This document shows positions 6,637-56,044 of a DNA stretch of 64,000 bases, piece after piece. The position numbers and the translations under genes were made by a program. The DNA is from an uncultured Gemmatimonadales bacterium (GTDB taxonomy: Bacteria; Gemmatimonadota; Gemmatimonadetes; Longimicrobiales; Longimicrobiaceae), in the NCBI GenBank assembly GCA_963716255.1, contig OY970303.1, positions 256,001 to 320,000 of the forward strand. The letters run 5' to 3'. The notes below the pieces were generated by a model, which saw only the letters and a program-made list of their open reading frames with translations, was not told where the DNA came from and made no database searches. Each line of letters opens with the position of its first letter. Within the stretch, counting starts at the first letter, position 1.

Positions 6637-6765
6637 CGCGTGAGGGATTCCGGCCCGAAGGGGCGAGACCGCGCGGCGGTTTGCGCGGGCTCGACTCCGT
6701 TACGCACGGTTGTTTCGTGCGTTACGGAGCCGAAGCCCGACCCCGGCGCAGCCGGGGGCACGCCC
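6637..6765 (-). repeat. ~130-bp structured intergenic repeat, copy 1 (stem variant ACGCACG)
   Basis: Direct sequence match to 9 other copies; begins ~28 nt after the DUF4159 stop. Confidence 0.95.
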
Positions 6766-6793
6766 AGACCCAGGTCGTTCAAAGCAGTTGAGA

Positions 6794-7483
6794 TCAACGT
6801 GTGAGCGCGTACACGACGACGTTGACGCCGAAGCGGGTGTTGTCGACGGACTGGAAGCGCTTGTTCTGCGGGTGGTAGTTCCACTCCGAGGAGTAGTCCT
6901 TGTTGGAGTACAGGAGCCCGATGCGCCCGTCCACCTCCACGCCGAGGAGGTGCTCGTGGACCAGGTTGTCGCCCCAGCCGTTCAGCTCGTGGCTGGTGGT
7001 GGGCGGCCCGTCGGGGAAGCGGAAGAAGGCGCGGTACAGCTCGTGGTCGCGGGGGAGCGGACGCAGCGCGCGTGCCCCGAAGATGCGCCCCACCTCGGCG
7101 GTGGCGGTCTTGTGGAAGGCGCCGTCCACGTCGTGGTTGTGGTCGTCGATGAACACGAAGCCGCCGCGCTGCACGTACGCGCGCAGGTTGGCGCTCTCTC
7201 GCGCGTCGAAGCGCACGGGGAGGTGCCCGGTGAGGAAGACGAACGGGTAGCGGAACAGCTCGGGGCTGGCGAGGTCCACCACCACGCCCCGCGCGGCCAC
7301 GGGGATGGCGGTGTACTGCGCGATGGAGTGCACCAGGTTGGCGGGCACGAGCGGTGCCGAGTCCCAGTCGCCCGAGCCGTAGCGCGCGGTGGCCCACGTG
7401 AACGGCTCGGCGCGCCGGAACGCCGCGCTCCCGGACGCGGCGAGCCCGCCCGCCAGGCTGAGCAGGGCGAGCAGCAGCCGCAT
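6794..7483 (-). CDS. DUF4159 family protein
   Basis: RYGSGDWD, YPFVFLTGH, YVQRGGFVFIDD, FGVNVVVYALT; N-terminal signal; moxR operon context. Confidence 0.85.
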   Translation of the reverse strand: MRLLLALLSLAGGLAASGSAAFRRAEPFTWATARYGSGDWDSAPLVPANLVHSIAQYTAIPVAARGVVVDLASPELFRYPFVFLTGHLPVRFDARESANLRAYVQRGGFVFIDDHNHDVDGAFHKTATAEVGRIFGARALRPLPRDHELYRAFFRFPDGPPTTSHELNGWGDNLVHEHLLGVEVDGRIGLLYSNKDYSSEWNYHPQNKRFQSVDNTRFGVNVVVYALTR

Positions 7484-7557
7484 GCCCCGGCCGACGCGCC
7501 CTCCGACGTTGCCGTTCTCCCCTCTCCCCTCGTGGGAGAGGGGCCGGGGGTGAGGGG

Positions 7558-9876
7558 TCACGGCCGCCCTCCCGCGCCCAGCCGCCGGAAGTACTCGGCT
7601 GCGGCCGGGTCGGCGGTGGACGGCAGCGGGGCCGCCGCGGCGCCCGGGCCCGTGCCGGACCCCAGGAGCGCGCTTGCCTGCGCGAGGATCCGGCGCGCTT
7701 CGCCGGCCCTCCCCCGCCCCGCCGCCTCGGCCGCCCGCGCCAGCAGCGCGGCGGCGCGGGGGTCGGCGCCCGGCGCGGCGAGCGCCCGCTCGGCCAGCGC
7801 GGACAGCGCCAGCGCGGCGTCCCGCGGGGAAAGGGTGCGCAGGCGCTCCGCGGCCAGGTCGGCGTCGGCGAGGAGCGGCGCCGCGGAGGGCGCGGCGGGC
7901 CCGGGCGTGCGATTCTGCGGCGCGGCCTCGTCCAGCTTGCCGGTGCCGCGGGCGGCGGCCACGTCCACGGGGTCCACCCGCACGGTGCCGCGCACGTAGC
8001 GCCGCTCGCCCTCCTGCGCCTGCTTGATGAGCCGCAGCGCCTCGTACTGGTGCGGGAGCGCCGCGGCGGGCGCGCCCTGGTTCAGCTCGCGCTCGGCGGC
8101 CCACATGGCGTTGTAGATGGTGAGCAGCCGCTGGTCCACGCGGATCACGGGCGCTTCGTCGTGGCGGTGCGAGACCTCGTCCAGCGTTCCCCGCCCGGTG
8201 GCCTCGGAGGCTTCCTCCAGGACCTGCTCCGGGGTGCGCGCCTCCGCCTCCTCGCCGGCGTGCTCCTCGCCCTCGTGCGCGTGGGGGGTGCCGCCGGCGT
8301 CCTGGAAGCCCACCTGGGCGCCGGGGAGCTGCATGCCGCCGGTGCTGCGCTCGAAGATCTGCTCGCCCACGCGGTCGCGGAGGCGCCCCTGCTGGGCGCC
8401 GATGTCCTGCCCATCCCGCAGCACGGCCTCGCGGCCCAGGCGCGGGGCGCGGTCGCGCAGCCGCTCGGTCAGGAGGATCAGCATGCGCTGGCTGAGGACG
8501 GGGTCCTTTTCCACCTCGGGCGGGATGCCGACGATGGTGTTCACCTGGTCCAGCTCCTCGGGGCGGGCGATGCGGATCACGCGCGTCTGCGACACGCTCT
8601 CCCCCGGGCCGCCCACGTCGTTGCGGTCGCGGGCGACGGCGCGCAGGTGGATCATGTCGCCCGGCCGCAGCCCCATGGCGCCCAGGTCCAGCGCGTACTC
8701 GCCGGCGGCCGTCGCCCCATCGCGGGCGACGCGCGCCCAGGGCCACTCGCCCTCCTCGAACGTGTACGACTCGCCGCTCCCGCGCGAGCGGATCCACGTC
8801 AGCCGGAAGTCGCCCACGCCGAAGTCGTCGCTCGCGGTGGCGCGCAGCCGGACCACGCCGCTCGCGGAGGCGAGCACCAGGTCGCCGGCGGGCTCGCGCA
8901 GGGCGACGTCGGGCGGCTGGTCGGCGCGCGGGGTGATGGGGACGACGCGGCGGTCCACGACCTCGCCCGCGGCGACCGCTTCCAGCGCCAGCCCGCGGGC
9001 GCCCGCCTGGGTCCACGTCACGCTCCACTCGCCCCCGCCGCGCCGCACCGGGAGCGGCCCGCCGCCCACCAGCGACGCCCGCACGCCGGACCAGCGCCCC
9101 GGGAAGCGGCTGCGCAGCGAGACGCGCGTTCCCGGGAGGAGCGCCAGCCCCTCGGCGCCGCGGAGCTCGCGCTCGGGGAGCCCGGTGTAGGCGGGCGGTC
9201 GGACGCGCCAGCGGAGCTCGTCGAAGCCGGGGACGGGCGGCGGCGGCACCGCCGGCACCACCTGGGCGCGCGCCTCCTCCCACGCGGTCGGGTAGGCGTC
9301 GGCCGGGCTGCGCCAGCGCGCCCACGCCTCGCGCGCGGGGCCGGGAAAGGCCCCCGCGAGGAGGAGCGCGGCCAGCGCGGCGCCGCCCAGGAGCGCGCCG
9401 GGGCGGCGCAGGCGCGGCGGCACGACCTCGCGCGCGTCCACCTGGCGGACGCGCGCCGCGGCGTCCGCGTGGAAGGCGCGCAGCACGACGCCGTCCGGTC
9501 CCGCGCCGCCGTCCGCCGCGCCGAGGTCGAGCAGGGTCGCCAGCCGGTTGCCGAGCGCGGGGACGCGCTCCTCCGCCAGCAGCGCGAGCCGCCGGTCGCC
9601 CGGGGGATGCGACGCGCGCCACGCCGCCCGCCCGAGCACGCCCGCCGCGAGCAGCAACGGCGCCCAGCGGAGGATCTCGCGCGCCCCGGCCGGCAGCGGC
9701 CACAGCAGGTCGAGCGCGACGAGCGCGAGCGCCGCGAGCCCCCCCAGCGCGGGCGCGAGCAGCAGCGCGCGCGCCAGAACGGCGCCGCGCCAGCGCGCGC
9801 GCACCCGCCGGAGCAGCGTGCGTGCGGCGGAATCCGCGCCCGCGCCGACGGTCCGCGGCTCGATCACCGTGCTCAC
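7558..9876 (-). CDS. DUF4175-like membrane-anchored protein
   Basis: N-terminal TM helices, PPAYTG, ASDDFGV, ARDRNDVGGP, helical C-terminus; GTGA overlap with the upstream stop. Confidence 0.75.
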   Translation of the reverse strand: MSTVIEPRTVGAGADSAARTLLRRVRARWRGAVLARALLLAPALGGLAALALVALDLLWPLPAGAREILRWAPLLLAAGVLGRAAWRASHPPGDRRLALLAEERVPALGNRLATLLDLGAADGGAGPDGVVLRAFHADAAARVRQVDAREVVPPRLRRPGALLGGAALAALLLAGAFPGPAREAWARWRSPADAYPTAWEEARAQVVPAVPPPPVPGFDELRWRVRPPAYTGLPERELRGAEGLALLPGTRVSLRSRFPGRWSGVRASLVGGGPLPVRRGGGEWSVTWTQAGARGLALEAVAAGEVVDRRVVPITPRADQPPDVALREPAGDLVLASASGVVRLRATASDDFGVGDFRLTWIRSRGSGESYTFEEGEWPWARVARDGATAAGEYALDLGAMGLRPGDMIHLRAVARDRNDVGGPGESVSQTRVIRIARPEELDQVNTIVGIPPEVEKDPVLSQRMLILLTERLRDRAPRLGREAVLRDGQDIGAQQGRLRDRVGEQIFERSTGGMQLPGAQVGFQDAGGTPHAHEGEEHAGEEAEARTPEQVLEEASEATGRGTLDEVSHRHDEAPVIRVDQRLLTIYNAMWAAERELNQGAPAAALPHQYEALRLIKQAQEGERRYVRGTVRVDPVDVAAARGTGKLDEAAPQNRTPGPAAPSAAPLLADADLAAERLRTLSPRDAALALSALAERALAAPGADPRAAALLARAAEAAGRGRAGEARRILAQASALLGSGTGPGAAAAPLPSTADPAAAEYFRRLGAGGRP

Positions 9877-11288
9877 GCCGCCCTCCTCCGTCCTTGGGCC
9901 AGGACCGTTTCCACCAGGGCGACGAGGAGCGCCGCCCCCAGCACCCACCGGGCGAGCGGGATCCCGCCGCCCGCCGCCCCCGGCGCCGCCACGGCCACCC
10001 TGTCGCCGGCGCCCGCGCCGCGCAGCATCGCGCGCGCGCCCTCGTCCAGCGGAGCGGACCCGCCCCCGCCGGTCCGCGCTTCCTCGCAGCCGCGCGCGAG
10101 CCGGTCCACCGCGCGTGGAAAGGCCGCCGAGAGCGGCAGCGACCCAGCCTCCAGCTCCGCCGCGACGTACACGACGCACCCCCGGCCGGCGCGGAACGCG
10201 GCCGCCGCCGCCCGCCCGTCCGCCCACGCCGCGAGCAGCCGGGCGCCGCGCGCCGGCCCGCCCGGGAAGCGGCGCGCCGCGCCGTCCAGCCGCGTCCCGT
10301 CGTCCAGCACCAGGCTGCCTCCTCCGCTCGGATTCTCCCCGTCCGCGTCGGCCGACACCCAGGGCAGCACGTCCGCCCCCCCGACCGACGCCGCCCCGGA
10401 GACGACCACGGTCGCGCCGGCGCCCGCGGCCGCGCGCACCCGCGATGCCGCCGTGCCGTCGACCGGACCGAGCAGGAAGTAGACGGAGGCGGAGTCCGCC
10501 GCGCCCCCCACGATCCACCCCGTCGCCCCGAGCGCCGCGGCGACGTACCCGCCGTGCCCGGGCGCCGCCAGCACCGATGCCTTCCGGCCGCCCACGTCCG
10601 CGGCCAGCGCCGGCGAGGCGGAAGGCGGCGCGGCGGACGGCAGCCCGGGGAGGCGGATCGCGCCCGGCCAGGCGGCGCGGCGCACGGCGGCCAGCCCCGG
10701 CCGCCACCCGTCCCAGCGGAGCGAGGCAAGCAGCGTCACCCGCACCGAGTCCGCGCCGCCCAGTCCCCGCGCGGCGGACGGCACGGCGCGCAGCGCAGCC
10801 ACGTAGTCCGGCGGGGACCGGCCGGGCCCCGCCGCCGCGAGCGAGTCGAAGAGCGCAGCCGTCACTTCGCCCCGCGCCATCGGCACCGCCGCCGAGTCGA
10901 AGAGCACCAGCGCGCCCCGCGCCGCGCCGTCGGGACCCAGGAGCGCCCGCCGCGCCTCCGCCACGGCGGCCTCCCACGCCCGCCCGTCCATCGCCGCGCT
11001 GCGGTCCAGCAGCACCAGCTCCGCCGTCCCCCGCTGCCGCGGGAGCCACGCCGGCCCCGCCGCGGCCGCGCCCACCAGCGCCAGCAGCAGCATGCGCAGC
11101 GCCAGCAGGAGCAGGTCCGTGGGCCGGCGCCGCAGGCGGAGGGCGGTCCGCGCGTCCGGCGCGAGGAAGCGCGCCGTGGGGAGCGCGCTCCGCTCCGGCG
11201 GCCTGCGCGCGATCAGGTGGAGCAACAGCGGCACCAGCGCCGCCAGGAGACCGGCCGCGAGCAGCGCCGGGCGCGCGAGCTGGAGCAC
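9873..11288 (-). CDS. BatA-domain / degenerate vWA membrane protein
   Basis: N-terminal PLLLHLIARR...FL...LLLALRML (BatA/N-terminal double TM), LVLLDRSAAM, C-terminal TM. Confidence 0.8.
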   Translation of the reverse strand: MLQLARPALLAAGLLAALVPLLLHLIARRPPERSALPTARFLAPDARTALRLRRRPTDLLLLALRMLLLALVGAAAAGPAWLPRQRGTAELVLLDRSAAMDGRAWEAAVAEARRALLGPDGAARGALVLFDSAAVPMARGEVTAALFDSLAAAGPGRSPPDYVAALRAVPSAARGLGGADSVRVTLLASLRWDGWRPGLAAVRRAAWPGAIRLPGLPSAAPPSASPALAADVGGRKASVLAAPGHGGYVAAALGATGWIVGGAADSASVYFLLGPVDGTAASRVRAAAGAGATVVVSGAASVGGADVLPWVSADADGENPSGGGSLVLDDGTRLDGAARRFPGGPARGARLLAAWADGRAAAAAFRAGRGCVVYVAAELEAGSLPLSAAFPRAVDRLARGCEEARTGGGGSAPLDEGARAMLRGAGAGDRVAVAAPGAAGGGIPLARWVLGAALLVALVETVLAQGRRRAA

Positions 11289-11291
11289 CGG

Positions 11292-12197
11292 CTACCTCCT
11301 CCGCGAGCGCGCCCAGCGGATCAGCCCGCGCTCCACCGGCTCCGCCGTGGAAAGCGCCACGTACTCCGCCCCGCGCCCGCGCAGCCGCTCCGCCAGCGCG
11401 TCGTACCAGGCGCGCACCCGCTCCGCGTAGCCCGGGTCCGCGGCGGGCGCCGCGGCGATCCCCGGCCCCGGCCGCTCCGGGTCGTAGAAGCGCCCCGGCC
11501 CCGGCGCGCGCGTCCCCTCCTCCGCCGGCGTGAGCACCCGGAAGACGATCACCTCGTCCCCCCGCGCCCGCAGCCGCCCCGCGGCGGCCACCGTCGCCTC
11601 CGCGTCGCCCTCCTCCAGCAGGTCCGAGACGAGCACCACCCGCCCCGGCCGCCGCAGCCGCTCCCCGGCCCGGTCCAGCGCCGCCGCCGCCGTGGCGCCG
11701 CCCTCCGCGCGCAGCCTCTCCAGCCGCAGCAGCAGGTCGTGCAGCTGCCCCCGGCGCGAGCGGGGCGGCAGCGCCAGCTCCGCCCCCGTCCCGAAGGTGG
11801 CCAGCCCCACCGCGTCCCCCGCGCCCAGCATCAGGTGCGCCATTGCCGCGGCCACGTACGCCGCGTAGCGCAGCTTGGGGACGCCGCCCGGCTCCGCGTA
11901 GCCCATGGAGGCCGTCGCGTCCACCACCAGCACCGCGCTCAGGTTGGAGCGTTCGCGGAACTCCCGCACGTACAGACGGTCCGTGCGCCCGTACACCTTC
12001 CAGTCCAGCCAGCGCACGTCGTCGCCCTGCTGGTACTCGCGGTGCCGCGCGAACTCCTCCCCCGCCCCGTGGTTGGGCGAGCGGTGGATCCCCGCCACGA
12101 AGCCCTGCGCCACGGTGCGCGCGACCACGTCCAGGCCGCCCAGCCGCTCCAGCAGGCCGGGAGGAAGAAAGTGGGTCTGCGGCGTGGTGTCGGGCAT
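11292..12197 (-). CDS. DUF58 family (vWA-like) protein
   Basis: GIHRSP..GAGEEFARHREYQQGDDVRWLDWK, DATASM, VLVSD. Confidence 0.92.
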   Translation of the reverse strand: MPDTTPQTHFLPPGLLERLGGLDVVARTVAQGFVAGIHRSPNHGAGEEFARHREYQQGDDVRWLDWKVYGRTDRLYVREFRERSNLSAVLVVDATASMGYAEPGGVPKLRYAAYVAAAMAHLMLGAGDAVGLATFGTGAELALPPRSRRGQLHDLLLRLERLRAEGGATAAAALDRAGERLRRPGRVVLVSDLLEEGDAEATVAAAGRLRARGDEVIVFRVLTPAEEGTRAPGPGRFYDPERPGPGIAAAPAADPGYAERVRAWYDALAERLRGRGAEYVALSTAEPVERGLIRWARSRRR

Positions 12198-12229
12198 CTG
12201 GTATGAAAGGATGAAAAGAGCTCGGGTTC

Positions 12230-12361
12230 GGGCGTGCCCCCGGCTTGCGCCGGGGTCGGGCTTCGGCTCCGTAGAGCAGCAAACAACGCTGCTCAACGGA
12301 GTCGAGCCCCCGCGAAACTGCCCGCGGGGTCTCGCCCCTTCGGGCCGAAATCCCTCACGCG
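12230..12361 (+). repeat. ~130-bp structured repeat, copy 2 (stem variant GAGCAGC)
   Basis: Match to family; lies between moxR and DUF58, antisense to the operon. Confidence 0.95.
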
Positions 12362-12458
12362 GGGCATCGCGCTGGCGTCCGCGGGTTACCCCCGCCGTTG
12401 CCGTGCCGTTCTCCCCTCCCCCTTGCGGGGAGGGGCCGGGGGAGGGGGTCGCCGTCGC

Positions 12459-13532
12459 CTACAGTCCGCTCCGCGGCGGAGCCACCGCTTCCAGCAGCCT
12501 CGCCACCAGCGCGTCCGGCGTCACGCCCTCCGCCTCGGCGCTGAAGTTCACCAGGACGCGGTGGCGCAGCACGGGGGCGGCGACGCGGCGCACGTCGTCG
12601 GGGGTCACGTGGAAGCGGCCGGCGAGCAGCGCGCGGGCCTTGGCGCACAGCACCAGCGCCTGCCCCGCGCGCGGGCCGGCGCCCCAGCGCACCCAGCGGG
12701 CGACCTCGTCCGGAGCGCCGGGCGTCCCCGGGCGCGTGGCGCGCACCAGGCGGGCCGCGTACTCCAGGACGTTGCCCGCCACCGGCACCTCGCGCACCCG
12801 GCGCTGAAGCAGGAGCACCCGCTCCGCGTCCAGCACCCGCTCCACCGGCGGCTCCGCCGTGCCCGTGGTGGAGCGCAGGATCTCCACCTCCTCCGCCTCG
12901 CTGGGGTAGTCCAGGCGCACGTCCAGCATGAAGCGGTCGAGCTGCGCCTCCGGGAGCGGGTACGTCCCCTCCTGCTCCAGCGGGTTCTGCGTGGCCAGCA
13001 CGAAGAACGGGCGGGGGAGGAGCAGGTCCTCTCCCGCCACCGTCACCCGCCCCTCCTGCATCGCCTCCAGCAGCGCCGCCTGCGTCTTGGGCGGGGTGCG
13101 GTTGATCTCGTCCGCCAGCAGCACCTGCGTGAACACCGGGCCGCGCAGGAAGCGCGCGGCCCGGCGGCCGGTGGAGCGGTCCTCCTCGATCACCTCCGTC
13201 CCCGTGATGTCCGAGGGCATCAGGTCCGGCGTGAACTGCACCCGCCGGAACTCCAGCTCCAGCGCCTCCGCCAGCGTGCGCACCAGGAGCGTCTTGGCGA
13301 GCCCCGGCACCCCCACCAGCAGCGCGTGCCCCCCCGCCAGCAGGCACAGCAGCACCTCCTCCAGAGCCGCCTCCTGCCCCACGATGCGGCGGCGCACCTG
13401 CTCCCGGAGCGCCGCGGCGTGCGCGACCAGCGATTCGATCTCCCCTTCGGCGGTGGCCAGGACTCCCCCCTCGTGGCTGCGGGCGTGGCGCGCTCCGGCG
13501 CGGAAAAAAACGCGAATGGATTGGGTAATCAT
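12459..13532 (-). CDS. moxR: MoxR family AAA+ ATPase
   Basis: GVPGLAKT Walker [46 protein letters not shown]. Start uncertain (could be near 13460). Confidence 0.95.
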
Positions 13533-13682
13533 ACCCTTGCCCGCGCCCCCCGCGAAAGGCGTGTTTACCCCCGGGTCGCGCGCCGGTCCACGCCCCATGG
13601 ATTCGCCGCGCGCCCGGCATTATACTCCCCGTACTCACCCGAGCACCGGTGGGACCGTCCGTCTCCCGCACGCCCTCGCCCC

Positions 13683-15080
13683 ATGTCCCGCTCCGGAAGC
13701 GCCCTGCGGCTCCTCGGCCTCGCGGCGGCCCTCGTCCTCCTCGCGACCGCCCCCGGGTGCGCCGGCTCCGCGCTGCGCCCCGCGTCCGCCCCGGGCGGAG
13801 GCCCGGAAACGGCCGCCGACCGCGAGCGCGCCTTCTGGAACGCCGTGAGCGAGCTGGAGCTGGTGCGCGCCACCCGCATCGCCCCGGACGCCGAGCACGC
13901 CGAGTTCGCGCGCGGGATGCGGCTGGTGCTGGACGGGCGGATGGAGCAGGCAGAAGCGCGCTTCGAGCCGCTCGCAGGCGCCGCCACCAACTCGCTGGTG
14001 CGCGTGGCCTCGCGCATCGCCCTGTCCAGCGTCTTCGGCTACGGCGGGCGCTGGCAGGCGCTCCACGACCTGTCGGCCGGCCTGCCGCTGCGCGCCTCCT
14101 CCGCCGCGCGCGGGCGCGCCGGCATCGACGCCTGGTCCGCCGCCATGCGCATGGCCCCCGAGGCGCAGTACCGCATCTCCGCCGTCCCCGGCGCGCTCCC
14201 CTTCGACGTCACCGGCACCGGCACGCCGCTGGTCCCCGTGCACGTCAACGGCCGCGTCCGCTACTTCTGGCTGGACACCGGCACCAGCGTCACCCTGATC
14301 GCCTCCGACGTCGCCGCCGAGGCCGGGATGCGGCCGCTCACCGGCGACACCCTGGAGATCGTCACCACCGTGGGGCGCATCACCGCGCTCCCCGCCGTGG
14401 TCCAGGAGCTCCGGCTGGGTCCCCTGTTCGCCACCGGGCACGCCGCCGCCATCGTCCCCGCGCGCGAGCTGACCATCGTGGAGCGGATGGAGGGCGGGCT
14501 CCAGGAGCGGGTCAAGATCGACGGCGTCATCGGCATGGACCTGCTGCGGCAGCTCAACGTCATCATCGACTTCCCCACCGGCGTCGCCATCCTGGGGCGC
14601 CCCCGCGCCGACCCCGAGGGCCGGACGCGCCGCAACCTCTTCTGGCTGGGCTACCCCGTCGTCCGCGCCGAGGGGCCGCGCGGCACCACGCTGTACTTCG
14701 GGCTGGACACCGGGGCCGATTCCACCTTCGTCACCCGCAATCTGCTCCGCAAGCTCCCCAGCCGGCTCCTCGCGAAGCGCACCCGCTACCTGTCCGGCTT
14801 CGGCGGCGACACCACCGTCCGCACGCCCATCCTGTCCGGGCTCACGCTGCGCGCCGCGGGCAAGAGCTTCAACCTGCGCGACGTCACCGTGCACGACAAC
14901 CGGCGCCTCATGCTGTTCGAGCTGGACGGCATCCTGGCAGCCGACCTGGGCGCCGGGCACCGGGTGCGCATCGACATGACCAACGGCATCTTCGAGATCG
15001 GCACTCCCGTGAGCGATCCGCGCGCCCGGGAGCGCCGCGCCGCCGATCCCGTTTCGGGCGGGGTTTCCGATCCTTCCTAG
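13683..15080 (+). CDS. Exported two-domain retropepsin-like aspartyl protease
   Basis: Signal peptide; two catalytic-type motifs FWLDTGT and FGLDTGA, followed by DGVIGMD and DGILAAD respectively. Confidence 0.85.
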   Translation: MSRSGSALRLLGLAAALVLLATAPGCAGSALRPASAPGGGPETAADRERAFWNAVSELELVRATRIAPDAEHAEFARGMRLVLDGRMEQAEARFEPLAGAATNSLVRVASRIALSSVFGYGGRWQALHDLSAGLPLRASSAARGRAGIDAWSAAMRMAPEAQYRISAVPGALPFDVTGTGTPLVPVHVNGRVRYFWLDTGTSVTLIASDVAAEAGMRPLTGDTLEIVTTVGRITALPAVVQELRLGPLFATGHAAAIVPARELTIVERMEGGLQERVKIDGVIGMDLLRQLNVIIDFPTGVAILGRPRADPEGRTRRNLFWLGYPVVRAEGPRGTTLYFGLDTGADSTFVTRNLLRKLPSRLLAKRTRYLSGFGGDTTVRTPILSGLTLRAAGKSFNLRDVTVHDNRRLMLFELDGILAADLGAGHRVRIDMTNGIFEIGTPVSDPRARERRAADPVSGGVSDPS

Positions 15081-15117
15081 TTTTCTTACGGATTACGGCA
15101 CGGATTGCGGCGGGTTC

Positions 15118-15247
15118 GGGCGTGCCCCCGGCTGGCGCCGGGGTCGGGCTTCGGCTCCGTAACGCACGAAACAACCGTGCGTAACGGAGTCGAGCCCGCG
15201 CAAACAGCCCCGCGGTCTCGCCCCTTCGGGCCGAAATCCCTCACGCG
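15118..15247 (+). repeat. ~130-bp structured repeat, copy 3 (ACGCACG)
   Basis: Match to family; 37 nt after the protease stop. Confidence 0.95.
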
Positions 15248-15291
15248 GGATCGCGCTGGAGTCCGCGGGCCTCGAGCTCGTCGCCTCTGCG

Positions 15292-15483
15292 TCAGCGGCC
15301 GATCTCGGGGAGCCCCAGGCCACGGCAGATCTTTCTCGCGAGCAGGTCCGGAACCTCCGAGTGGCGGGGGACAGCCTCGACCGCGCCTGTCGCCGGGTTG
15401 CACCAGGGCGAGTGCGCATCGCCCTCCCGCTTCAGGTAACCGCCGCTGATCCGCAGGTAGCGAAGGAGAGCGCCGCGCTTCAT
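15292..15483 (-). CDS. hicA: HicA family toxin
   Basis: 63 aa basic protein MKRGALLRYL...REGDAHS...VPRHSEV..LARKICRGLG; ATGA overlap with hicB. Confidence 0.85.
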   Translation of the reverse strand: MKRGALLRYLRISGGYLKREGDAHSPWCNPATGAVEAVPRHSEVPDLLARKICRGLGLPEIGR

Positions 15484-16083: not shown

Positions 16084-16142
16084 GCGGGTCCGCCTCCGCG
16101 ACCGTGGGGCGGGACTGGCAAACCTTCTCTCCGGGGGACACC

Positions 16143-16453: not shown

Positions 16454-16497
16454 AGCCCGACCCGAGCGCCAGCGAGGGGCACGCCCAACCCCGCAGT
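16454..16497 (-). repeat. Fragment of the divergent 130-bp repeat subfamily
   Basis: 44 bp identical to 38274-38317; directly after the carB stop. Confidence 0.9.
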
Positions 16498-25020: not shown

Positions 25021-25150
25021 GGGCGTGCCCCCGGCTGGCGCCGGGGTCGGGCTTCGGCTCCGTAGGGCTGCAAACAACGCAGCCCAACGGAGTCGAGCCC
25101 CGCGAAACTGCCCGCGGGTCTCGCCCCTTCGGGCCGGAATCCCTCACGCG
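25021..25150 (+). repeat. ~130-bp structured repeat, copy 4 (GGGCTGC)
   Basis: Match to family; 23 nt after the patatin stop. Confidence 0.95.
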
Positions 25151-25227
25151 AGAGGCCCCCTCCCCCCGGCCCCCTCCCCCGCAAGCGGGAGAGGGGGAGG
25201 ACGGCAGGAGGGCCGCAGCGAGGGGGT

Positions 25228-37158: not shown

Positions 37159-37288
37159 CGCGTGAGGGATTCCGGCCCGGAGGGGCGAGACCCGCGGGCA
37201 GTTTCGCGGGGCTCGACTCCGTTACGCACGGTTGTTTCGTGCGTTACGGAGCCGAAGCCCGACCCCGGCGCCAGCCGGGGGCACGCCC
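37159..37288 (-). repeat. ~130-bp structured repeat, copy 5 (ACGCACG)
   Basis: Match to family; 28 nt after the stop at 37317. Confidence 0.95.
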
Positions 37289-38174: not shown

Positions 38175-38306
38175 CGCGTGAGGGATGCGCGCCCGGAGGG
38201 CCGAGACCCGCTAGCGGTTCCGTCGGGGCTCGGCTGCGTGGGGAACGGTGGTATCGTTCCCCACGCAGCGCGCAGCCCGACCCGAGCGCCAGCGAGGGGC
38301 ACGCCC
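38175..38306 (-). repeat. ~130-bp structured repeat, copy 6 (divergent subfamily)
   Basis: Same ends (CGCGTGAGGGAT...GGCACGCCC) and layout; central stem GCTGCGTGGGGAACG/CGTTCCCCACGCAGC; 20 nt after the asnS stop. Confidence 0.9.
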
Positions 38307-46160: not shown

Positions 46161-46229
46161 CCGCCGGCGCGCGTGCGGGCTGCGGTCATGATACCGGATC
46201 CGGTTGGAACGGCTTTGGACGGCGGGTTC

Positions 46230-46359
46230 GGGCGTGCCCCCGGCTGGCGCCGGGGTCGGGCTTCGGCTCCGTAGGGCTGCAAACAACGCAGCCCAACGGA
46301 GTCGAGCCCCGGCAAACTGCCGCCGGGTCTCGCCCCTTCGGGCCGAAATCCCTCACGCG
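46230..46359 (+). repeat. ~130-bp structured repeat, copy 7 (GGGCTGC)
   Basis: Match to family; antisense to flanking genes. Confidence 0.95.
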
Positions 46360-47041: not shown

Positions 47042-47046
47042 GGCCG

Positions 47047-48396: not shown

Positions 48397-48519
48397 TCTG
48401 ACTTCGGAATCGGTCGGAGGATCGCGGACTTTCGCGCTGCATGCCGTTCATGTATTCACGAACAGGGCTGGCAAGTTACGCGGGTGCCGGCCCCGTGGCA
48501 AATCGGCGCGAGCGGGGCG

Positions 48520-48951
48520 TCACCGCTCCCGCAGGCGCACCCGGGTGACCTCCTCCACGGCCGCCATCACCGCGTGGAAGCCCTGCACGTCGCGGGGGTC
48601 GGCGTGCGCGCGGATCTCGCCCTCCAGCGCCTCCAGCAACCGGTTGCAGCGGTCCGCCAGCTCCCCGCCCTCGTCGCTCACGTGGATCAGGAAGGAGCGG
48701 CGGTCGTCCGGGTTGACCTCGCGGCGCACCAGCCCGGCCCGCTCCAGGCGGTCGAGAAGGCTGGTGAAGGTGGACTGCTTGATCCCGAAGACGCGCACCA
48801 GCTCCGCGATGGGGGCCGGGGCGTAGCTCCGCAGGTAGGTGAGCACGTGCCCCTCCAGGGGGCTCACCCCCAGCTCGCGGGTGCGCGCCTCCAGGTACAC
48901 GGAAAGCTGCCGCGACGCCTTGTGCAGGGGAGAAAGGAATTCCAGGGGCAT
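48520..48951 (-). CDS. MarR family transcriptional regulator
   Basis: STFTSLLDRLERAGLVRREVNPDDRRS. Confidence 0.93.
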   Translation of the reverse strand: MPLEFLSPLHKASRQLSVYLEARTRELGVSPLEGHVLTYLRSYAPAPIAELVRVFGIKQSTFTSLLDRLERAGLVRREVNPDDRRSFLIHVSDEGGELADRCNRLLEALEGEIRAHADPRDVQGFHAVMAAVEEVTRVRLRER

Positions 48952-49023
48952 GGCTTCCTGCGGTCGGGGAGGTGGCGGCGGGACCGGAGCGCACGGCACG
49001 GGCGTCCGCGTCCGCCGCGGAGC

Positions 49024-49052
49024 TTGACGGCGCTCGCGAGAGCCGCTAGTCT
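49024..49052 (+). promoter_or_regulatory. sigma70-type promoter for the DinB gene
   Basis: TTGACG-N17-TAGTCT. Confidence 0.7.
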
Positions 49053-49066
49053 ACCGAAAGAGGATA

Positions 49067-49080
49067 ATACGATATCGTAT
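49067..49080. promoter_or_regulatory. Perfect 14-bp palindrome, likely MarR operator
   Basis: ATACGATATCGTAT between divergent marR and dinB, just downstream of the promoter. Confidence 0.7.
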
Positions 49081-49125
49081 CAATTTCGCATAGTCCCCTT
49101 TCCACCCGGCACCCGCGAGGCGACC

Positions 49126-49641
49126 ATGGCCGCAGAAGCACCCTCCAGCGTGGGCGAGATCGAGCTCCTCCGCCACCAGGCGCGCGTGACCCATCACGTC
49201 GTGCGGCTCAACACCGAGGGCGTGACACAGGAGGAGAGCCTGCTCCAGCCCGAGCCCGCCGGGAACTGCCTGAACTGGGTGGTGGGGCACCTGGTCGCCA
49301 TCTACGAGCGGGCGCTCCCGGTCCTGGGCCAGGAACCGGTGATGGGGCCCGGCGCCATGGCGCGGTACGACCGCGGCTCGGCGCCGCTGCGCGACCCCGC
49401 CGAGGCCATGCGGCTGGACGACCTGCTGGCGGCGTGGGACGAGGCGTCGCGGCGCGTGGACGCGGGGCTTGCCGGGCTCGACCCGGCGGCGCTCGGCGCG
49501 CCCGCGCCGTTCAGCCCGGGCGGCGACCCGGACGAGACGACCCGCTCGCTGCTGGCGACGGTGCTCTTCCACCAGGGCTACCACGCCGGCCAGACGGGGA
49601 TCCTGCGCAGGCTCGCCGGGCGGGAGGGAGCCATCCGCTGA
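49126..49641 (+). CDS. DinB family protein
   Basis: [20 protein letters not shown]. Confidence 0.9.
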
Positions 49642-49871
49642 GACGTCCCCGCGGACGGAGCTCCCCCGGTGGGTTGCCGCCGCGGCGCGCTGCCACTACC
49701 CTGTTGGGTGGCCGCGCGCGCGTGTGGAACGACACCTGCACGCGCCGCCGCGGGCGACGCAAATCTCCCGCACGCGCGGGAGCGCACGGAATCTTTCAGG
49801 ACGGCGCCGCCGGCCGGCGCCGGCTTCGCGCTCGTAGCACGACCTTTCAAACCGCGGATCGGAGGAGCAGC

Positions 49872-50498
49872 GTGAACGACGACGATCAGGACCAGGACCA
49901 GGAGCAGGAGAAGGAGGAGCGGACCCCCGCCTCGACCCCGACCACCGTGACCGACTCCCTCAAGGAGCGGCTCTTCAAGGCGCGCACGCTGGTCATCAGC
50001 GGCGAGATCAACCAGGCGCTGGCGTCGCACGTCATCGCGCAGCTGCTGGCGCTCGCCGCGGATTCGGACAAGGCGATCACCATCTTCATCAACTCGCAGG
50101 GCGGCCACGTGGAGTCGGGCGACACCATCCACGACGTCATCCGCTTCATCAAGCCGCGCGTGCGAATGGTGGGGACCGGGTGGGTGGCGAGCGCCGGGGC
50201 GCTGATCTTCGTGTCGGTTCCGCTGGAGGACCGCTTCGCCCTCCCCAACACCCGCTTCCTGCTGCACCAGCCGGCGGGCGGGAGCGGCGGCACTGCGGCG
50301 GACATCGACATCGAGGCCCGCGAGATCCTCAAGATGCGCGACCGCATCAACCGCATCTTCTCCACGGCGACGGGGCAGCCCATCGAGCGCATCGAGAAGG
50401 ACACCCACCGCAACTTCTGGCTGGGCGCCGACGACGCCAAGGAGTACGGGCTGGTGGGACGGATCGTGGCGAGCCAGGACGAGCTGGAAGGGGCCTGA
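49872..50498 (+). CDS. clpP: ATP-dependent Clp protease proteolytic subunit
   Basis: FINSQGG, GWVASAG (Ser), LLHQP (His), [17 protein letters not shown]. Confidence 0.95.
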
Positions 50499-50620
50499 CC
50501 GTCCGCGGGCAGGGAGAAGTCCGGGGGGTGCCGGCGGGCGCGTTGCACGGGCCGCCGGCACCCCCTAGCTTTGAGGACCCGCAGGCTTCCCACCCACCCG
50601 CGCCTCCCCAGGAGATCCGC

Positions 50621-51076
50621 ATGCGCAGATTGCTTCTGTCCGTCGCGTTCGCCGCCGCGCTGCTCGCCCTTCCCCGCGCCGCGGCGGCGCAGGACTACCG
50701 CACCATCGTCGTCTCCCAGCTCGACACCGTCGCGGGCCCCATCGCCCGGAGCGGCTTCCGCGCGGAACCGTCCGTGTTCGACCGCGACGTCGTGGTGGGG
50801 GCGCTCGGCCAGGGCGCCACCTCCATGCTGGAGCTCAACCTGGTGGGCGGGGTGAACTACTTCATCCCCGCGGTGTGCGACGGCGACTGCAGCGACATGG
50901 ACCTGCGCATCTTCTCCACCGACAACACCACGGCGGTGGCGGAGGACACGGCGGACGACGACGTCCCCATGCTCAACTTCACGGCGCCCAAGTCGGGGCG
51001 CTACATGCTGGCCGTGGACATGGCGAAGTGCTCGGCGAGCATCTGCTACTACGGGTTCCGCGTGTACCGGAAGTAG
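50621..51076 (+). CDS. Secreted PPC-like beta-domain protein
   Basis: Signal ..AAAQ; VCDGDCSDMDL, EDTADDDVP, SGRY. Confidence 0.8.
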   Translation: MRRLLLSVAFAAALLALPRAAAAQDYRTIVVSQLDTVAGPIARSGFRAEPSVFDRDVVVGALGQGATSMLELNLVGGVNYFIPAVCDGDCSDMDLRIFSTDNTTAVAEDTADDDVPMLNFTAPKSGRYMLAVDMAKCSASICYYGFRVYRK

Positions 51077-51093
51077 CGAGAACGGCAGGATTT

Positions 51094-51223
51094 GGGCGTG
51101 CCCCCGGCTGGCGCCGGGGTCGGGCTTCGGCTCCGTAACGCACGAAACAACCGTGCGTAACGGAGTCGAGCCCGCGCAAACAGCCGCGCGGTCTCGCCCC
51201 TTCGGGCCGAAATCCCTCACGCG
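51094..51223 (+). repeat. ~130-bp structured repeat, copy 8 (ACGCACG)
   Basis: Match to family; 17 nt after the stop at 51076. Confidence 0.95.
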
Positions 51224-51490
51224 GGGATGGTGCTGGCGTCCGCTGGGGCCCCCTCCCCGGCGCTGCGCGCCACCCGCCCTCGCTCCACCGGCGGGCGAGT
51301 GCTCTGGCGAGTCCCTTCGGGTTTCGCACCGACGGAGCAGCCTCCCCCGGCCGACCCCATGCACGGAGCCGGCCGGAGCACACGCTGTCGGCTCCCCTCT
51401 CCCAGAATGGCGCTTCACGCTTCGCGTGAACCGGATCGAGGACCCGGGTGGCGAGCCTCGAACGAGCCGGGTGAGGGGCTGAGGATTCAT

Positions 51491-51532
51491 ACGACGGAGG
51501 GGGCGGCCCGCGCGGGCCGCCCCCTCCGTCGT
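51491..51532 (-). terminator. Long perfect hairpin after the permease stop
   Basis: ACGACGGAGGGGGCGGCCC...GGGCCGCCCCCTCCGTCGT. Confidence 0.6.
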
Positions 51533-51535
51533 TCT

Positions 51536-52924
51536 CTAGCGGGCGGGCGACTCGCCGGGGGGGCGGCGCTTCCAGAACCAGAAGACGGGGATCCCCAGCA
51601 GGATCACGCCGAAGCCGAAGAGCGTCTGCCCCGGCTCCTCCACGACGGCGTTGGCGAGCATGGCCACGGAGGCGAGGAGGAAGACCAGCGGCACCACCGG
51701 ATACCCCCAGGCTCGGTAGGGACGCTCCAGGTCGGGGCGGCGGCGGCGCAGCAGGAACACGGCGCCCACGGCCAGCGCGTAGAAGGGCCAGATCCCCAGG
51801 ATGAAGGCGTCGGCCAGCTGCTCGAAGGAGCGGATGGACACGTAGCCGATCCCCAGCGCCGCGGCGAGCGCGATGGCGGCGAAGGGGGTGCGGAAGCGCG
51901 GGTGCACCGCGGCGATGGGGCGGAAGAAGAGCCCGTCGTCCGCCATGGCGTAGAAGATCCGCGGACCCGTCATGGTGGAGCCGTTCAGCGCCCCGAAGGC
52001 GGAAAGCATCACCATGGCCGCCACGATGGCGGCGCCCGCCTGCCCGAACACCGTGCGCGCCGCGTCCGCGGCCACCAGCGGCCGCCCCGCCATCTCGGAG
52101 ACGGGGAGCACGTACAGGTACGCGGCGTTGACCACCAGGTAGATGGCGATCACCGCGGCGGTGCCGCCCAGCAGCGCGCGGGGCAGCACCCGGGCGGGGT
52201 CCTTGACCTCGCCGGCCACGAAGGTGAGGTCCGCCCACCCGTCGTACGCCCACATCACCGCCACCAGCGCGATCCCGAAGCCGCCCCACGTGGTCGGCGA
52301 CCACTCGATGGGCGACGCGAGCGCGCCCGCCGAGCCGTCGCCCAGGAAGAAGGCCGCCGCGGCGAGCCCCACCAGCGTCACGGCCTTGGCGAGGGTGGAC
52401 GCGTTCTGCACCAGGGCGCCCCACTTCACCGACAGGATGTTGGCGGTGGCGAGCGTCACGATGGCGCCGGCCGCCACCGCCTTGACCCCCGTCTCGGTGA
52501 TGGGGACGAAGGTCTGCACGTACTCGGCGAAGAGCATGGCGATCCCCCCCAGCGCGGAGGGGCGGATCACCAGCAGCTCCGTCCACCCGAAGAGGAAGGC
52601 GGGGAGCGGCCCGTACGCCTCGCGCAGGAACACGTAGATCCCCCCGGAGCGCGGGAAGAGCGCCGCCAGCTCGGCCAGCGTCAGCGCGCCGAAGAGGGCG
52701 ATGACCGCGCCCAGCACCCACAGCATGATCATGGCGCCCACCGTCCCCACGTCCGCCGCCACGCTGCTGGGAACGCGGAAGATGCCGCTCCCGATGGTGG
52801 AGCCCACCAGCACGGCGACGGCGCTCCAGAACCCCAGACGGCGCGGCAGCGCGTCGCCGTGCGGGTGGCCGGACGGGTCGAGGATCTGGGTAGTGTCGGG
52901 GAGAGGGGGGGTGGGTCGGCTCAC
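51536..52924 (-). CDS. APC family amino-acid permease
   Basis: GSTIGSGIF, AELAALFPRSGG.YV, WAYDGW, RPYRAWGYP; multiple TM helices. Confidence 0.95.
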   Translation of the reverse strand: MSRPTPPLPDTTQILDPSGHPHGDALPRRLGFWSAVAVLVGSTIGSGIFRVPSSVAADVGTVGAMIMLWVLGAVIALFGALTLAELAALFPRSGGIYVFLREAYGPLPAFLFGWTELLVIRPSALGGIAMLFAEYVQTFVPITETGVKAVAAGAIVTLATANILSVKWGALVQNASTLAKAVTLVGLAAAAFFLGDGSAGALASPIEWSPTTWGGFGIALVAVMWAYDGWADLTFVAGEVKDPARVLPRALLGGTAAVIAIYLVVNAAYLYVLPVSEMAGRPLVAADAARTVFGQAGAAIVAAMVMLSAFGALNGSTMTGPRIFYAMADDGLFFRPIAAVHPRFRTPFAAIALAAALGIGYVSIRSFEQLADAFILGIWPFYALAVGAVFLLRRRRPDLERPYRAWGYPVVPLVFLLASVAMLANAVVEEPGQTLFGFGVILLGIPVFWFWKRRPPGESPAR

Positions 52925-53074
52925 GGTGCGCTCGGGGCGAAGGGTGCGGAGCGGGAGGACGCGCGGCGGCTGTGGGACGTGTGGGCGCAATCTAACGCTC
53001 CGCCAGGGCGGCCGGACAGGGTGGCGGAAGCCGGAAGGGCCGCCCACGTCGTGGAGCGGCCCCTCGGGTTCTGC

Positions 53075-53163
53075 GCGAGTGGTCGGGCGCGGGGGTGCTC
53101 TCCGGAAAGAGTTAATCCCCCTCCCCGCCACCACACCCCCAACTCTTTCCTCCGGTCACCCCC
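53075..53163 (-). repeat. Third repeat type, copy 2
   Basis: Inverted homolog of 25228-25316. Confidence 0.85.
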
Positions 53164-53274
53164 GCACCCTCCCGGCGAGCATCCCTGAACGGCGACGTCC
53201 CCCGTCGTCAGTAGTTGTAGTGCTCCCCCTCTCCCGCTTGCGGGGGAGGGGGCCGCGGGGAGGGGTCCTGCCGT

Positions 53275-53404
53275 CGCGTGAGGGATTTCGGCCCGAAGGG
53301 GCGAGACCCGGCGGCAGTTTGCCGGGGCTCGACTCCGTTGGGCTGCGTTGTTTGCAGCCCTACGGAGCCGAAGCCCGACCCCGGCGCCAGCCGGGGGCAC
53401 GCCC
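53275..53404 (-). repeat. ~130-bp structured repeat, copy 9 (GGGCTGC)
   Basis: Match to family; 11 nt after the DPP-IV stop. Confidence 0.95.
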
Positions 53405-53415
53405 AAACCCAGCTG

Positions 53416-55608
53416 TCAAAGATTCTGCTCCAGCCAGTTCGTCAACATCGTGAACAGGTGGAGCTGCGTCTGCGCCCCCGAGATGCCGTGGTTCTTGCCC
53501 GGGTACATCATGAACGAGAACTGCTTCCCCACCCCCTGGAGCGCGGTGGCCAGCTGCACCGAGTTCTGGAAGTGCACGTTGTCGTCCGCCGTGCCGTGCA
53601 CCACCAGGTAGCTGGCCGTGATCCCCGCCACGTGCTTGAGAATGGAGGTGGAGTCGTACCCGGCCGGGTTGGCCTGCGGGGTGCCCATGAAGCGCTCGGT
53701 GTAGATGTTGTCGTACAGCCGCCAGTCGGCGACCGGGGCCACCGAGATCCCCGCCTTGTACAGCCGCCCGCCGCGGGCCAGCGACAGCCCGGTGGTGAAC
53801 CCGCCCCCGCTCCACCCCCACATGCCGATGCGGCCGGCGTCCACGTACGGCTGCGCGGCCATGTAGCGGGCCGCCGTCATCAGGTCGTCGGTGGCGGTCA
53901 CGCCGTGGCTCAGGTAGCCGGACTTTTCCCAGGCGCGGCCGCGGTTGGAGGTGCCGCGGGTGTCCACGCTCACCACCACGTACCCCTTCTGCGCCAGGAG
54001 CATGTGCCACAGGTTGCGGCTCCCGCCCCAGGAGTCGGCCACCGTCTGCGCGCCGGGGGTGCCGTACACGTAGAAGAGCACCGGGTACTTCCTGGAGGCG
54101 TCGAAGTTGGCGGGCCGGAACATCATGGCATTCATCTCCGCGCCGCCCTGGGTGGGGATGCGGAAGAACTCCGGCTGGCCCACCCCGGCCGCGGCCAGGT
54201 TGGCCTGCACCCGCTGGTTGTCCGAGAGGCTGCGGACCAGCGTGCCGTCGGTGCGGAAGAGACGGCTCGACGGGCTGGTGGCGGCGCGCGAGTACACGTC
54301 CACGAAGGTGCGCCCGTCGGGGCTGACGCTGGTGGAGTGGGTGCCGGGCTCGCGGGTGAGCTTCTGCACGGCGCCGCCGTCCAGCTTGACGCGGAACAGG
54401 TGGCGCTCGGCGGCGTTGCCCCCGGTGCCGGTGAAGTACACCCAGCCGCCGCGCTCGTCGACGCGGTCCACGGAGGTGACGTCCCAGGCGCCCGGGGTGA
54501 GCTTGCGCACCAGCCGGCCGTCGCGGCCGTACAGGTAGAGCTGGTTGTAGCCTTCGCGCTGGCTGGTCCAGAGGAGCTGGCTCCCGCCGCGCACCAGCAT
54601 GAGGTCGTCGTCCACGTTGACCCAGGCCGAGTCGGTGTCGCTGAAGAGCGTGCGGCTGCGGCCGGTGCCCACGTCCGCGAGCAGGACGTCGATGCGGTTC
54701 TGCGCGCGGTTCATGCGCTGGATCACCAGCTCGGTGGGCGAGGCCGCCCACGACATGCGCGCCAGGTACTCGCCCTCGCCGGTGTCCATCCAGCGGGTCT
54801 CGCCGCCGGCCACGTCCACCACCCCGATCTTCACCTGGCTGTTGGGCTCGCCCGGCTTGGGGTAGTGAAGCGCCACGGGGACGGAGTAGCGGCCGGTGTC
54901 GTTGAGCCAGCTCTGCACGGGGACGCGGCTCTGGTCCAGCCGCCAGAAGGCGATGCGCCTGCCGTCGGGGCTCCAGCGCCACCCGTCCTGCACGCCCAGC
55001 TCCTCCTCGTACACCCAGTCGAAGGTGCCGTTGATGACGTTGTCGCCGCCGTCGCGGGTCAGCTGCGTCTCGCGCCCGGTGGCCAGCTCCACCACGTACA
55101 GGTTGTTGCCGCGGACGAAGCCCACGCGCGTCCCGTCGGGGGAAAGCTTGGCGAACTGCTGCCACCCCTCGCCGCGGCTGACCGGGGCGAGGCGCCCGGC
55201 CTGCTGGTCCCACACGTAGTAGGTGCCCTTGGTGCGCTGCCGCCAGACCTGCTGCGAGTTGGTGTAGACGAGCGCCCGCTGCCCGTCGGCCGACCAGGCG
55301 ATGTCCTCCACGTCCACGGGCTCGGCCTGCCCCTCGGCCACCAGGCGGGAGCCCTGCACCAGGCGCTCGCGCTTGCCGTCGTCGATCCCCACCGTCCACA
55401 CGTCGCTTGCGCGCGACTGGGGGTCGGCCTCGACGACGACGAAGCTCCGGCCGTCCGCCGACCACTGCGGGTAGAACGCGCCCCCGGAGAAGTCGCGGGA
55501 GGTGAAGATGCGCTCGAGGGTGAGCTGCTGCGCGGACGCCGCGGGCGCCGCCGCGAGGACCGCGACCGCGGAGATGCCGGCGGCTGCGGAGCGGAACCGG
55601 ATCGTCAT
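53416..55608 (-). CDS. Dipeptidyl peptidase IV (S9B)
   Basis: Signal; DWVYEEE, GWSGGG, HGTADDNVH, KNHGI. Confidence 0.96.
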   Translation of the reverse strand: MTIRFRSAAAGISAVAVLAAAPAASAQQLTLERIFTSRDFSGGAFYPQWSADGRSFVVVEADPQSRASDVWTVGIDDGKRERLVQGSRLVAEGQAEPVDVEDIAWSADGQRALVYTNSQQVWRQRTKGTYYVWDQQAGRLAPVSRGEGWQQFAKLSPDGTRVGFVRGNNLYVVELATGRETQLTRDGGDNVINGTFDWVYEEELGVQDGWRWSPDGRRIAFWRLDQSRVPVQSWLNDTGRYSVPVALHYPKPGEPNSQVKIGVVDVAGGETRWMDTGEGEYLARMSWAASPTELVIQRMNRAQNRIDVLLADVGTGRSRTLFSDTDSAWVNVDDDLMLVRGGSQLLWTSQREGYNQLYLYGRDGRLVRKLTPGAWDVTSVDRVDERGGWVYFTGTGGNAAERHLFRVKLDGGAVQKLTREPGTHSTSVSPDGRTFVDVYSRAATSPSSRLFRTDGTLVRSLSDNQRVQANLAAAGVGQPEFFRIPTQGGAEMNAMMFRPANFDASRKYPVLFYVYGTPGAQTVADSWGGSRNLWHMLLAQKGYVVVSVDTRGTSNRGRAWEKSGYLSHGVTATDDLMTAARYMAAQPYVDAGRIGMWGWSGGGFTTGLSLARGGRLYKAGISVAPVADWRLYDNIYTERFMGTPQANPAGYDSTSILKHVAGITASYLVVHGTADDNVHFQNSVQLATALQGVGKQFSFMMYPGKNHGISGAQTQLHLFTMLTNWLEQNL

Positions 55609-55915
55609 GACGTTCCCTGTTGGGGTGAGGTCGCCGGGCCGGGAAGCGATACGAGGCCGGGCGGGGTGCTGACAGAATGCAGCGTGGTACGAGGAAACGC
55701 CAGGGAGGTTCCCCGGGGAGAACGAAGTGCGAAAGTGCGGGAGTGCGAAAGTGCGGAGGGGGAGCGGCGGAAAATCCGGACGATGCAGGATGGTGCACCA
55801 CCGGTGCAGAATGGTGCAGCGGCCCGTTAGGGCGCGGCAGATGCGAAAGCGGCACCGGGCGGAGGTCCGCCCGGTGCCGCTTGTACCTGCTGTAGCCTGC
55901 TGTCCACCGCGGCCC

Positions 55916-56044
55916 CGCGTGAGGGATTTCGGCCCGAAGGGGCGAGACCCCGCGCAGTTTGCGGGGGCTCGACTCCGTTAAGCAGCGTTGTTTGCTGCTT
56001 TACGGAGCCGAAGCCCGACCCCGGCGCCAGCCGGGGACACGCCC
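55916..56044 (-). repeat. ~130-bp structured repeat, copy 10 (AAGCAGC)
   Basis: Match to family; 56 nt after the stop at 56101. Confidence 0.95.

Follow-up and report, generated by a model that had tools for sequence, protein, structure and literature searches.

Flavo-1 (RF01705) was listed by Weinberg et al. 2010 (PMC2864571) as a probable RNA of Bacteroidetes; in the passage of Guerin et al. 2021 (PMC9723704) that concerns it, its matches lie indistinctly in sense and antisense, many of them outside transcribed regions. In the literature found that names Flavo-1, no function has been given for it since 2010. Further systems for comparison are the REP repeats (REP, BIME, REPIN) with their RAYT enzymes, the bacterial MITEs (Correia, RUP, ERIC) and the single-strand promoters and signals (Frpo, ssi) of plasmids. 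The present repeat, of about 130 nt, was found in 64,000 nt of an uncultured Gemmatimonadales bacterium (GenBank assembly GCA_963716255.1, contig OY970303.1, positions 256,001–320,000, forward strand; hereafter the window). Judged by its core motifs, it is a GC-rich branch of the Flavo-1 family and not new in kind, and comparison showed the predicted core to be common to several phyla, plasmids and phages. It is proposed, with somewhat better than even confidence, that this core folds as single-stranded DNA (ssDNA) on the strand matched by Flavo-1 (the Flavo-1 strand) and that the repeat is rewritten and spread by host enzymes, without a transposase of its own. A literature search, which did not cover the original ssi papers, returned no paper describing this repeat, Flavo-1 as ssDNA or Flavo-1 on plasmids.

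Copies in the window: nine canonical copies were returned by a motif scan (CTCCGT-A-[7]-AAACAAC-[7]-A-ACGGAG), with the 7-bp stem as ACGCACG (four copies), GGGCTGC (three), GAGCAGC (one) and AAGCAGC (one), and a tenth, divergent copy was added by profile search (Table 1). Both the number and the stem alleles agree with an earlier description made from the letters alone (the sequence-only reading), as does the lack of an open reading frame (ORF) in the repeat. The outer fold is a three-way junction of a terminal stem P1 (GCGTK/MACGC), a terminal hairpin P2 and a stem P3 with a fixed mismatch (GGG-A-TK/MA-G-CCC); in this genus, P3 bears a further, four-way junction, from which three additional arms extend. 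Covariation among 747 aligned copies recovered seven stem pairs, the long-range pair 46:132 (T-A 667, G-C 70) and the pair 120:126 (C-G 694, G-C 53); a C.T mismatch was kept in 744 of the 747. The terminal 5-bp inverted pair GCGTG/CACGC, which covaries with GCGTT/AACGC in other phyla, corrects the earlier statement that no terminal inverted repeats were seen. As CG occurs on each strand crossing the four-way junction, two registers are possible there, which accounts for the alternative pairing of GAGCCC seen earlier. Folding z-scores were −3.4 to −5.5 on both strands (three copies as RNA, two as DNA; 200 shuffles), and DNA folding of the Flavo-1 strand returned the outer three-way junction in 8/10 window copies.

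Relation to Flavo-1: Rfam gave chance miRNA-type matches only, in the window and in two copies; at the gathering threshold of Flavo-1 the window held no match and the two copies were not near it, and the Flavo-1 model gave no match in the genome (150 of 200 candidates scored, without a positive control match). A similar repeat of Bacteroidota prompted a GTDB search with the end motifs, by which at least 122 stretches were obtained, the 80 listed being from Bacteroidota, Treponema, Gemmatimonadota and one unclassified bacterium. Twenty end-motif loci were tested; Flavo-1 stood above its cut-off at the match in six, always on the strand opposite to that of the sequence-only reading, and these six hold the full three-way core and have in common with the repeat the basal stem GGGAUK...MAGCCCGAC with flanking GCGUKA. 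The label "uncatalogued" therefore falls: the core is that of Flavo-1, though Rfam gives no direct match. A model built from 38 non-Gemmatimonadota sequences, gathered with a pattern from this repeat, recovered 10/10 window copies (E 5e-10 to 5e-7; next match 0.13); six picked loci, missed by the shorter pattern, were left out of its building. At positions not fixed by the pattern, P1 was paired in 123/123 and P3 in 122/123 distinct elements, all four combinations occurring, and in the cross-lineage model 99.8% of 494 cells were paired, with 40 double changes (0/500 shuffles).

The repeat resembles Flavo-1 in its terminal motifs, in the P3 stem with its A.G mismatch, in strand, and in being intergenic, multi-copy and in either orientation. 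The interiors differ: that of Flavo-1 is a single long interrupted hairpin, that of the repeat a four-way junction with three arms, hence the absence of a direct Rfam match; the Rfam consensus structure of Flavo-1 spans the P3 arm, not P1 or P2. The repeat differs further in being GC-rich, in its occurrence in Gemmatimonadota and in its copy number (ca. 830), and members of the family in phages have branched interiors similar to its own. Separately, one family member was seen between cas1 and cas2 in a Bacteroidia contig (L065:1501-1613). The flank before GGGCGTG (for example the 39-nt flank in Table 1) consists of short imperfect ACGGC/ACTGC units and varies even between orthologous sites; the corresponding flank in Bacteroidota is T-rich.

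Strand and molecule: the loop of arm P6, read on the Flavo-1 strand, is a GNA triloop (GAA, GGA, GCA, GTA) in 732/750 copies, and in the 122 elements of other lineages GNA was found in 85/204 triloops on the Flavo-1 strand vs 19/204 on the other; tetraloops in the latter set were GNYA 30 times and GNRA 17 times, UUCG 0 and 3 times. The C(GNA)G loop is stable in DNA, and GNA loops favour DNA, so that the triloops of the Flavo-1 strand point to ssDNA. The CUUCGG motif reported earlier forms a hairpin; its pair 120:126 covaries, which fixes the triloop register rather than a UUCG tetraloop. Folding energy preferred the Flavo-1 strand in 299/300 cases with DNA parameters and in 296/300 with RNA parameters; wobble counts (76 vs 63 cells) are uninformative on strand. 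The form in which the repeat acts is thus likely to be ssDNA of the Flavo-1 strand rather than RNA; ssDNA had been one of the options named by the sequence-only reading, which had taken the complementary strand.

An RNA element, which is how Flavo-1 is annotated in Rfam, in the form of a 3'-untranslated-region structure that stabilises or regulates mRNA and is possibly copied by reverse transcriptase, its sharp end being the RNA 3' end, is judged quite unlikely. It would suit the 515/773 copies that are sense to the upstream gene and near its stop, the presence of the repeat in soil metatranscriptome contigs (4/4 runs), the single reverse transcriptase gene of the genome (a lone 520-aa ORF missed by the codon model, G000:C1:1015502-1017064) and the G.U-compatible pair on the strand of the sequence-only reading; it is opposed by the triloop register and the GNA/GNYA loops on the other strand, by the lack of sense preference between co-oriented genes (243 vs 219, p = 0.28) and by the sense and antisense, often untranscribed Flavo-1 matches in the cited passage of PMC9723704. 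No repeat copy lies near the reverse transcriptase gene, and the metatranscriptome contigs of the four runs, which carry no information on strand, ends or circles, show no joints in those with the repeat.

Copy number and placement: the genome of the host, a soil bacterium (8.42 Mb, 73% GC), gave 863 nhmmer matches, 827 of them above 50 bits; both end anchors were present in 773 copies, and the repeat makes up ca. 1% of the genome. The 7-bp stem, always paired in the window copies listed, is perfect in 616/671 parseable copies genome-wide (45 stem types, 18 of them perfect alleles); the loop and the A.A mismatch, earlier called invariant, are not so at this scale (AAACAAC in 448/671, A.A in 633/671). 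The proposed role of the AAAC loops as a protein recognition feature is not supported, for they vary in the genome and are missing from relatives in other phyla. By gene calls made in this analysis, which are rough, 770/773 copies overlap predicted genes by at most 60 nt and are thus intergenic; the median distance to the upstream same-strand stop codon is 26 nt, and divergent gaps are avoided (39/773 copies vs 628/2635 gaps). All eight other genomes of the genus carry the repeat; 22 more distant relatives gave marginal matches only, in two of them, and the outside-trained model gave no match in 150 other genomes of the phylum (27 candidates scored per genome). Near-identical repeats were found in records titled Longimicrobiaceae or Gemmatimonadota.

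In several respects the repeat is REP-like: there are hundreds of intergenic copies just 3' of stop codons, which amount to ca. 1% of the genome, lie in clusters with further palindromic repeats and serve as targets of insertion sequences. Insertion at one fixed position within the repeat was seen for 8/8 copies of an rve-type element together with its miniature (300 nt), and 4/4 copies of an IS4-like element lay in one loop of it. One DDE_Tnp_4 element, with a second, partial match elsewhere, likewise lies inside the repeat; example sites of insertion sequences are G000:C1:639709-641040, 443473-443775, 4228519-4230080 and 7602881-7603995. In contrast to REP/RAYT repeats, it is 130 nt long and multi-branched, has no GTAG foot (flank and core consensus) and has a core conserved across phyla, REP being species-specific; no RAYT was found. 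It is like the MITEs in being short, non-coding and gained and lost between relatives, and unlike them in that its terminal pair has only 5 bp, one of its ends is ragged, the target is not duplicated, and identical copies with shared flanks do not occur in clonal bursts. The repeat works in a REP-like manner, yet by the features compared it does not qualify as REP, as a MITE or as one of the known ssi.

Gain, loss and exchange: comparison with the sister genome G001 over 452 kb mapped 27 sites, of which 21 were filled and six scored empty (four internal deletions, one other insert, one clean); in the reverse direction 21/42 elements were mapped, 20 filled and one at a clean empty site. At the two clean empty sites the junction is directly after CACGC, with no target duplication, and 3 or 19 nt stand in place of the 39–46 nt variable flank. 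Copies that are gained or lost have one sharp end, at 5'-GCGTG, and one ragged tail. The earlier descriptions of a non-autonomous element and of the lack of target duplications are both supported.

At orthologous filled sites with flanks 89–99% identical, the allele was unchanged in 6/17, 3/19, 5/19 and 7/19 cases, the chance for an unchanged allele being 0.11, 0.08, 0.30 and 0.28, respectively; as a rule the modules at such sites differ by entire, compensated alleles. Modules are close to linkage equilibrium (V 0.16–0.17, 509 copies), and copies whose cores are identical do not have more flank in common (2.2 vs 2.0 nt). Exchange of the arms takes place at fixed sites and by entire blocks. From the equilibrium, the allele swaps and the unshared flanks it follows that covariation within the genome is mostly block exchange among few paired alleles, and that the independent compensatory events are modest in number, far below the copy number (kinship is ignored in the counts). 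Block swapping and the small number of such events would also be expected of a passive repeat, its perfect stems arising by template-switch repair of quasi-palindromes and gene conversion without structural selection; this is the least probable of the explanations considered, as it leaves unexplained the covariation of P1 and P3 across 60–120 nt in several phyla, the retained A.A (633/671) and C.T (744/747) mismatches and the placement on a single strand in plasmids. Structural selection, as put forward in the sequence-only reading, is supported.

Search for a partner enzyme: no Y1, IS110 or TnpB was found in this genome by searches in which the positive controls matched. The HUH/RAYT partner suggested earlier was likewise not found: Y1 occurs in 1/9 genomes of the genus, with no repeat copy within 1.5 kb, and no Y1 gene flanked by the repeat in the REP/RAYT manner was found in these genomes. 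No nuclease or transposase family recurred in the 66 of 99 neighbouring ORFs scanned in non-Gemmatimonadota loci, and seven inverted copy pairs (gap of at least 300 nt, no predicted gene between) gave on translation no enzyme-like ORF by eye. Three candidates were rejected: a DUF559 nuclease gene is boxed, in inverted orientation, by a second C/G-rich palindromic repeat instead; GIY-YIG gave two matches in long ORFs, and no boxing by the repeat was seen at the one locus of the two that was inspected; and a recurring phage neighbour of 530–570 aa proved to be the terminase large subunit.

These searches bear on movement of the repeat in trans, as a REP/REPIN-like ssDNA element, by an HUH (RAYT-type) enzyme or another small nuclease dedicated to it, which here would be rare, lost or not recognised as such. 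One sharp and one ragged end without duplication would fit one-ended strand transfer, the intergenic positions a median of 26 nt after stops and the avoidance of divergent gaps fit as well, and the part of Quentin et al. (PMC6006769) on Bacteroidetes Y1 subclass 2.6 describes flanking structures that are atypical. The core motifs of the repeat are not in the two supplements of PMC6006769, and the rarity of Y1 with no copy beside it, the 66 neighbours, the inverted pairs and the different repeat around DUF559 all speak against such an enzyme, which is regarded as unlikely, less so than the RNA element and the passive repeat.

Relatives on plasmids: homologues were found in 49 Vibrio and 93 mostly Bacteroidales plasmid records, and at those loci to which the model was applied it confirmed them; in Vibrio the core has diverged (E between about 1e-6 and 3e-3). 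When a window copy was compared directly with plasmids by blastn, the only matches were three short, weak ones; Rfam gave no match in the two Vibrio plasmid loci scanned; and among 11 plasmid records the strict pattern met one copy in three and none in three. In 7/7 multi-copy plasmids examined, every copy was on one strand. Most plasmid copies precede RadC, ParB, DUF3560, ArdC or antirestriction operons, the Flavo-1 strand being the template; one stands after a divergent parA start, so that orientation goes with the downstream operon, and one copy in a Phocaeicola plasmid lies after transfer genes. As a side observation, Vibrio conjugative plasmids (L393-L395, L400-L404) carry an unannotated 150-nt variant every 2–4 kb, all on a single strand and in front of leading-type operons.

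Such an arrangement resembles that of the leading region in Samuel et al. (PMC11541004), where, in the sections concerned, anti-defence genes lie on the T-strand with Frpo/ssi promoters: the plasmid homologues, too, recur along a single strand and stand before leading-type operons. Unlike Frpo/ssi, the repeat has no visible -35/-10 stem. Its GA-rich junction motifs are loosely similar to a heptamer of the phiX174/ColE1 primosome assembly site (PMC8246471), which is exact in 7/122 elements.

Relatives on phages: the viral scans gave 70 distinct loci, of which 31 had a terminase gene in the locus and eight were microviruses by seed match (21 terminase and four microvirus among 51 clusters); the longer pattern gave 0 viral contigs, and Rfam gave no match in 20 phage and 6 plasmid loci. 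On contigs of at least 20 kb, 13/32 loci were near a terminase vs 5.2 expected (P 0.0008, kin not being independent), and among all 61 non-microvirus loci 31 were, vs at most 24.5 expected. That the element is a conserved packaging signal of the terminase family was rejected: only 3/80 unselected relatives carry it, all three already known, so that its occurrences here are sporadic gains. Short members were seen directly 3' of the stop of a divergent terminase large subunit (L146, L148, L154, L162, L165, L171, L206, L246, L249); this terminase gave no Pfam/PHROG match where scanned, and the element is absent beside most of its relatives. In microviruses, members with two different interiors stand at one position, between the pilot-protein and replication-initiation genes (L161, L163, L170, L190, L229).

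Proposed mechanism: on the host-enzyme explanation preferred here, the Flavo-1 strand would become transiently single-stranded and fold, and the fold would be read by host machinery that would read the same signal on a plasmid strand entering the cell. If priming or strand invasion started at the fold, this would explain why copies are often converted by one another and why one is occasionally inserted by one end; a phage or plasmid probably brought the family into the genus, where it later expanded. By analogy with ssi/Frpo, the signal may have a priming or single-strand promoter function, which is offered tentatively. Slightly more tentative still is the wider suggestion that Flavo-1 could be, instead of an RNA, a widespread and hitherto unrecognised class of ssDNA signals by which conjugative plasmids and phages recruit host priming or transcription enzymes, and which in this genus propagates and rewrites itself by host enzymes only, without a transposase. 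To our knowledge, no ssi has been amplified to hundreds of chromosomal copies.

Several results weigh against this explanation or its parts. Of the seven multi-copy plasmids, five are related Vibrio plasmids, and the T-strand is assigned in them by gene orientation. In microviruses the Flavo-1 strand is the non-coding strand in 7/9 loci and is therefore the wrong strand for priming on a plus-strand virion. The model gave no match to the phiX174 F-G intergenic region or ColE1, and no resemblance to Frpo1 or ssiE (sequences from the PMC11541004 supplement) was seen by eye. The 773 copies show no overall replichore bias (364 vs 409, p = 0.11). The G.T at columns 49:85 in 668/747 copies favours the strand of the sequence-only reading, and folding energy, which favours the Flavo-1 strand for DNA and RNA alike, does not pick the molecule. 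Recovery of the window copies by the outside-trained model involves some circularity, since a pattern from this repeat had served to gather its training sequences. The enzyme families excluded are four only, the Y2 search, without a positive control, being uninformative.

Table 1: Copies of the repeat and associated features in the window. Strand refers to the Flavo-1 strand (the strand thought to fold); the sequence-only reading took its complement.
Feature	Position	Strand	Remarks
Full copy, 128 nt	6638..6765	+	Orthologous site filled in G008 and G005, other internal alleles
Full copy, 131 nt	12230..12360	-	G006 filled with other stem allele; G008, G005 and G004 empty
Full copy, 129 nt	15118..15246	-	
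Fragment	16454..16486	+	5' fragment: terminal hairpin and junction start only
Full copy, 129 nt	25021..25149	-	Orthologous site empty in G008 and G005
Full copy, 129 nt	37160..37288	+	
Divergent subfamily copy, 131 nt	38176..38306	+	Architecture unchanged
Variable 39-nt flank	46191..46229	-	3' tail on Flavo-1 strand; present only with copy; absent with core from G001
Full copy, 129 nt	46230..46358	-	Clean empty site in G001
Full copy, 129 nt	51094..51222	-	Orthologous site empty in G008, G005 and G004
Full copy, 129 nt	53276..53404	+	G008 filled, other alleles
Full copy, 128 nt	55917..56044	+	G008 filled, another subtype

Other features of the window: a second palindromic family, C/G-rich, often adjoins the 3' side of the element (window 25153-25202 and 53220-53269; also G000:C1:125100-125650). 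Large repeated modules ca. 3.2 kb apart at window 57396-64000 probably belong to a putative non-ribosomal peptide synthetase region.

The Flavo-1 core is now placed in a further phylum and on Vibrio, Moraxella and Bacteroides plasmids, where its position would be that of single-strand signals. The 830 copies of the repeat in this genome amount to a natural library of mutants of the fold; they exchange modules in place unusually fast, and two insertion sequences use them as landing sites. If the proposed explanation is true, Flavo-1 would be recast as a mobile-DNA signal able to overrun a chromosome; if the priming reading is true as well, it would provide a new ssi class and a route by which a repeat may spread without an enzyme of its own.

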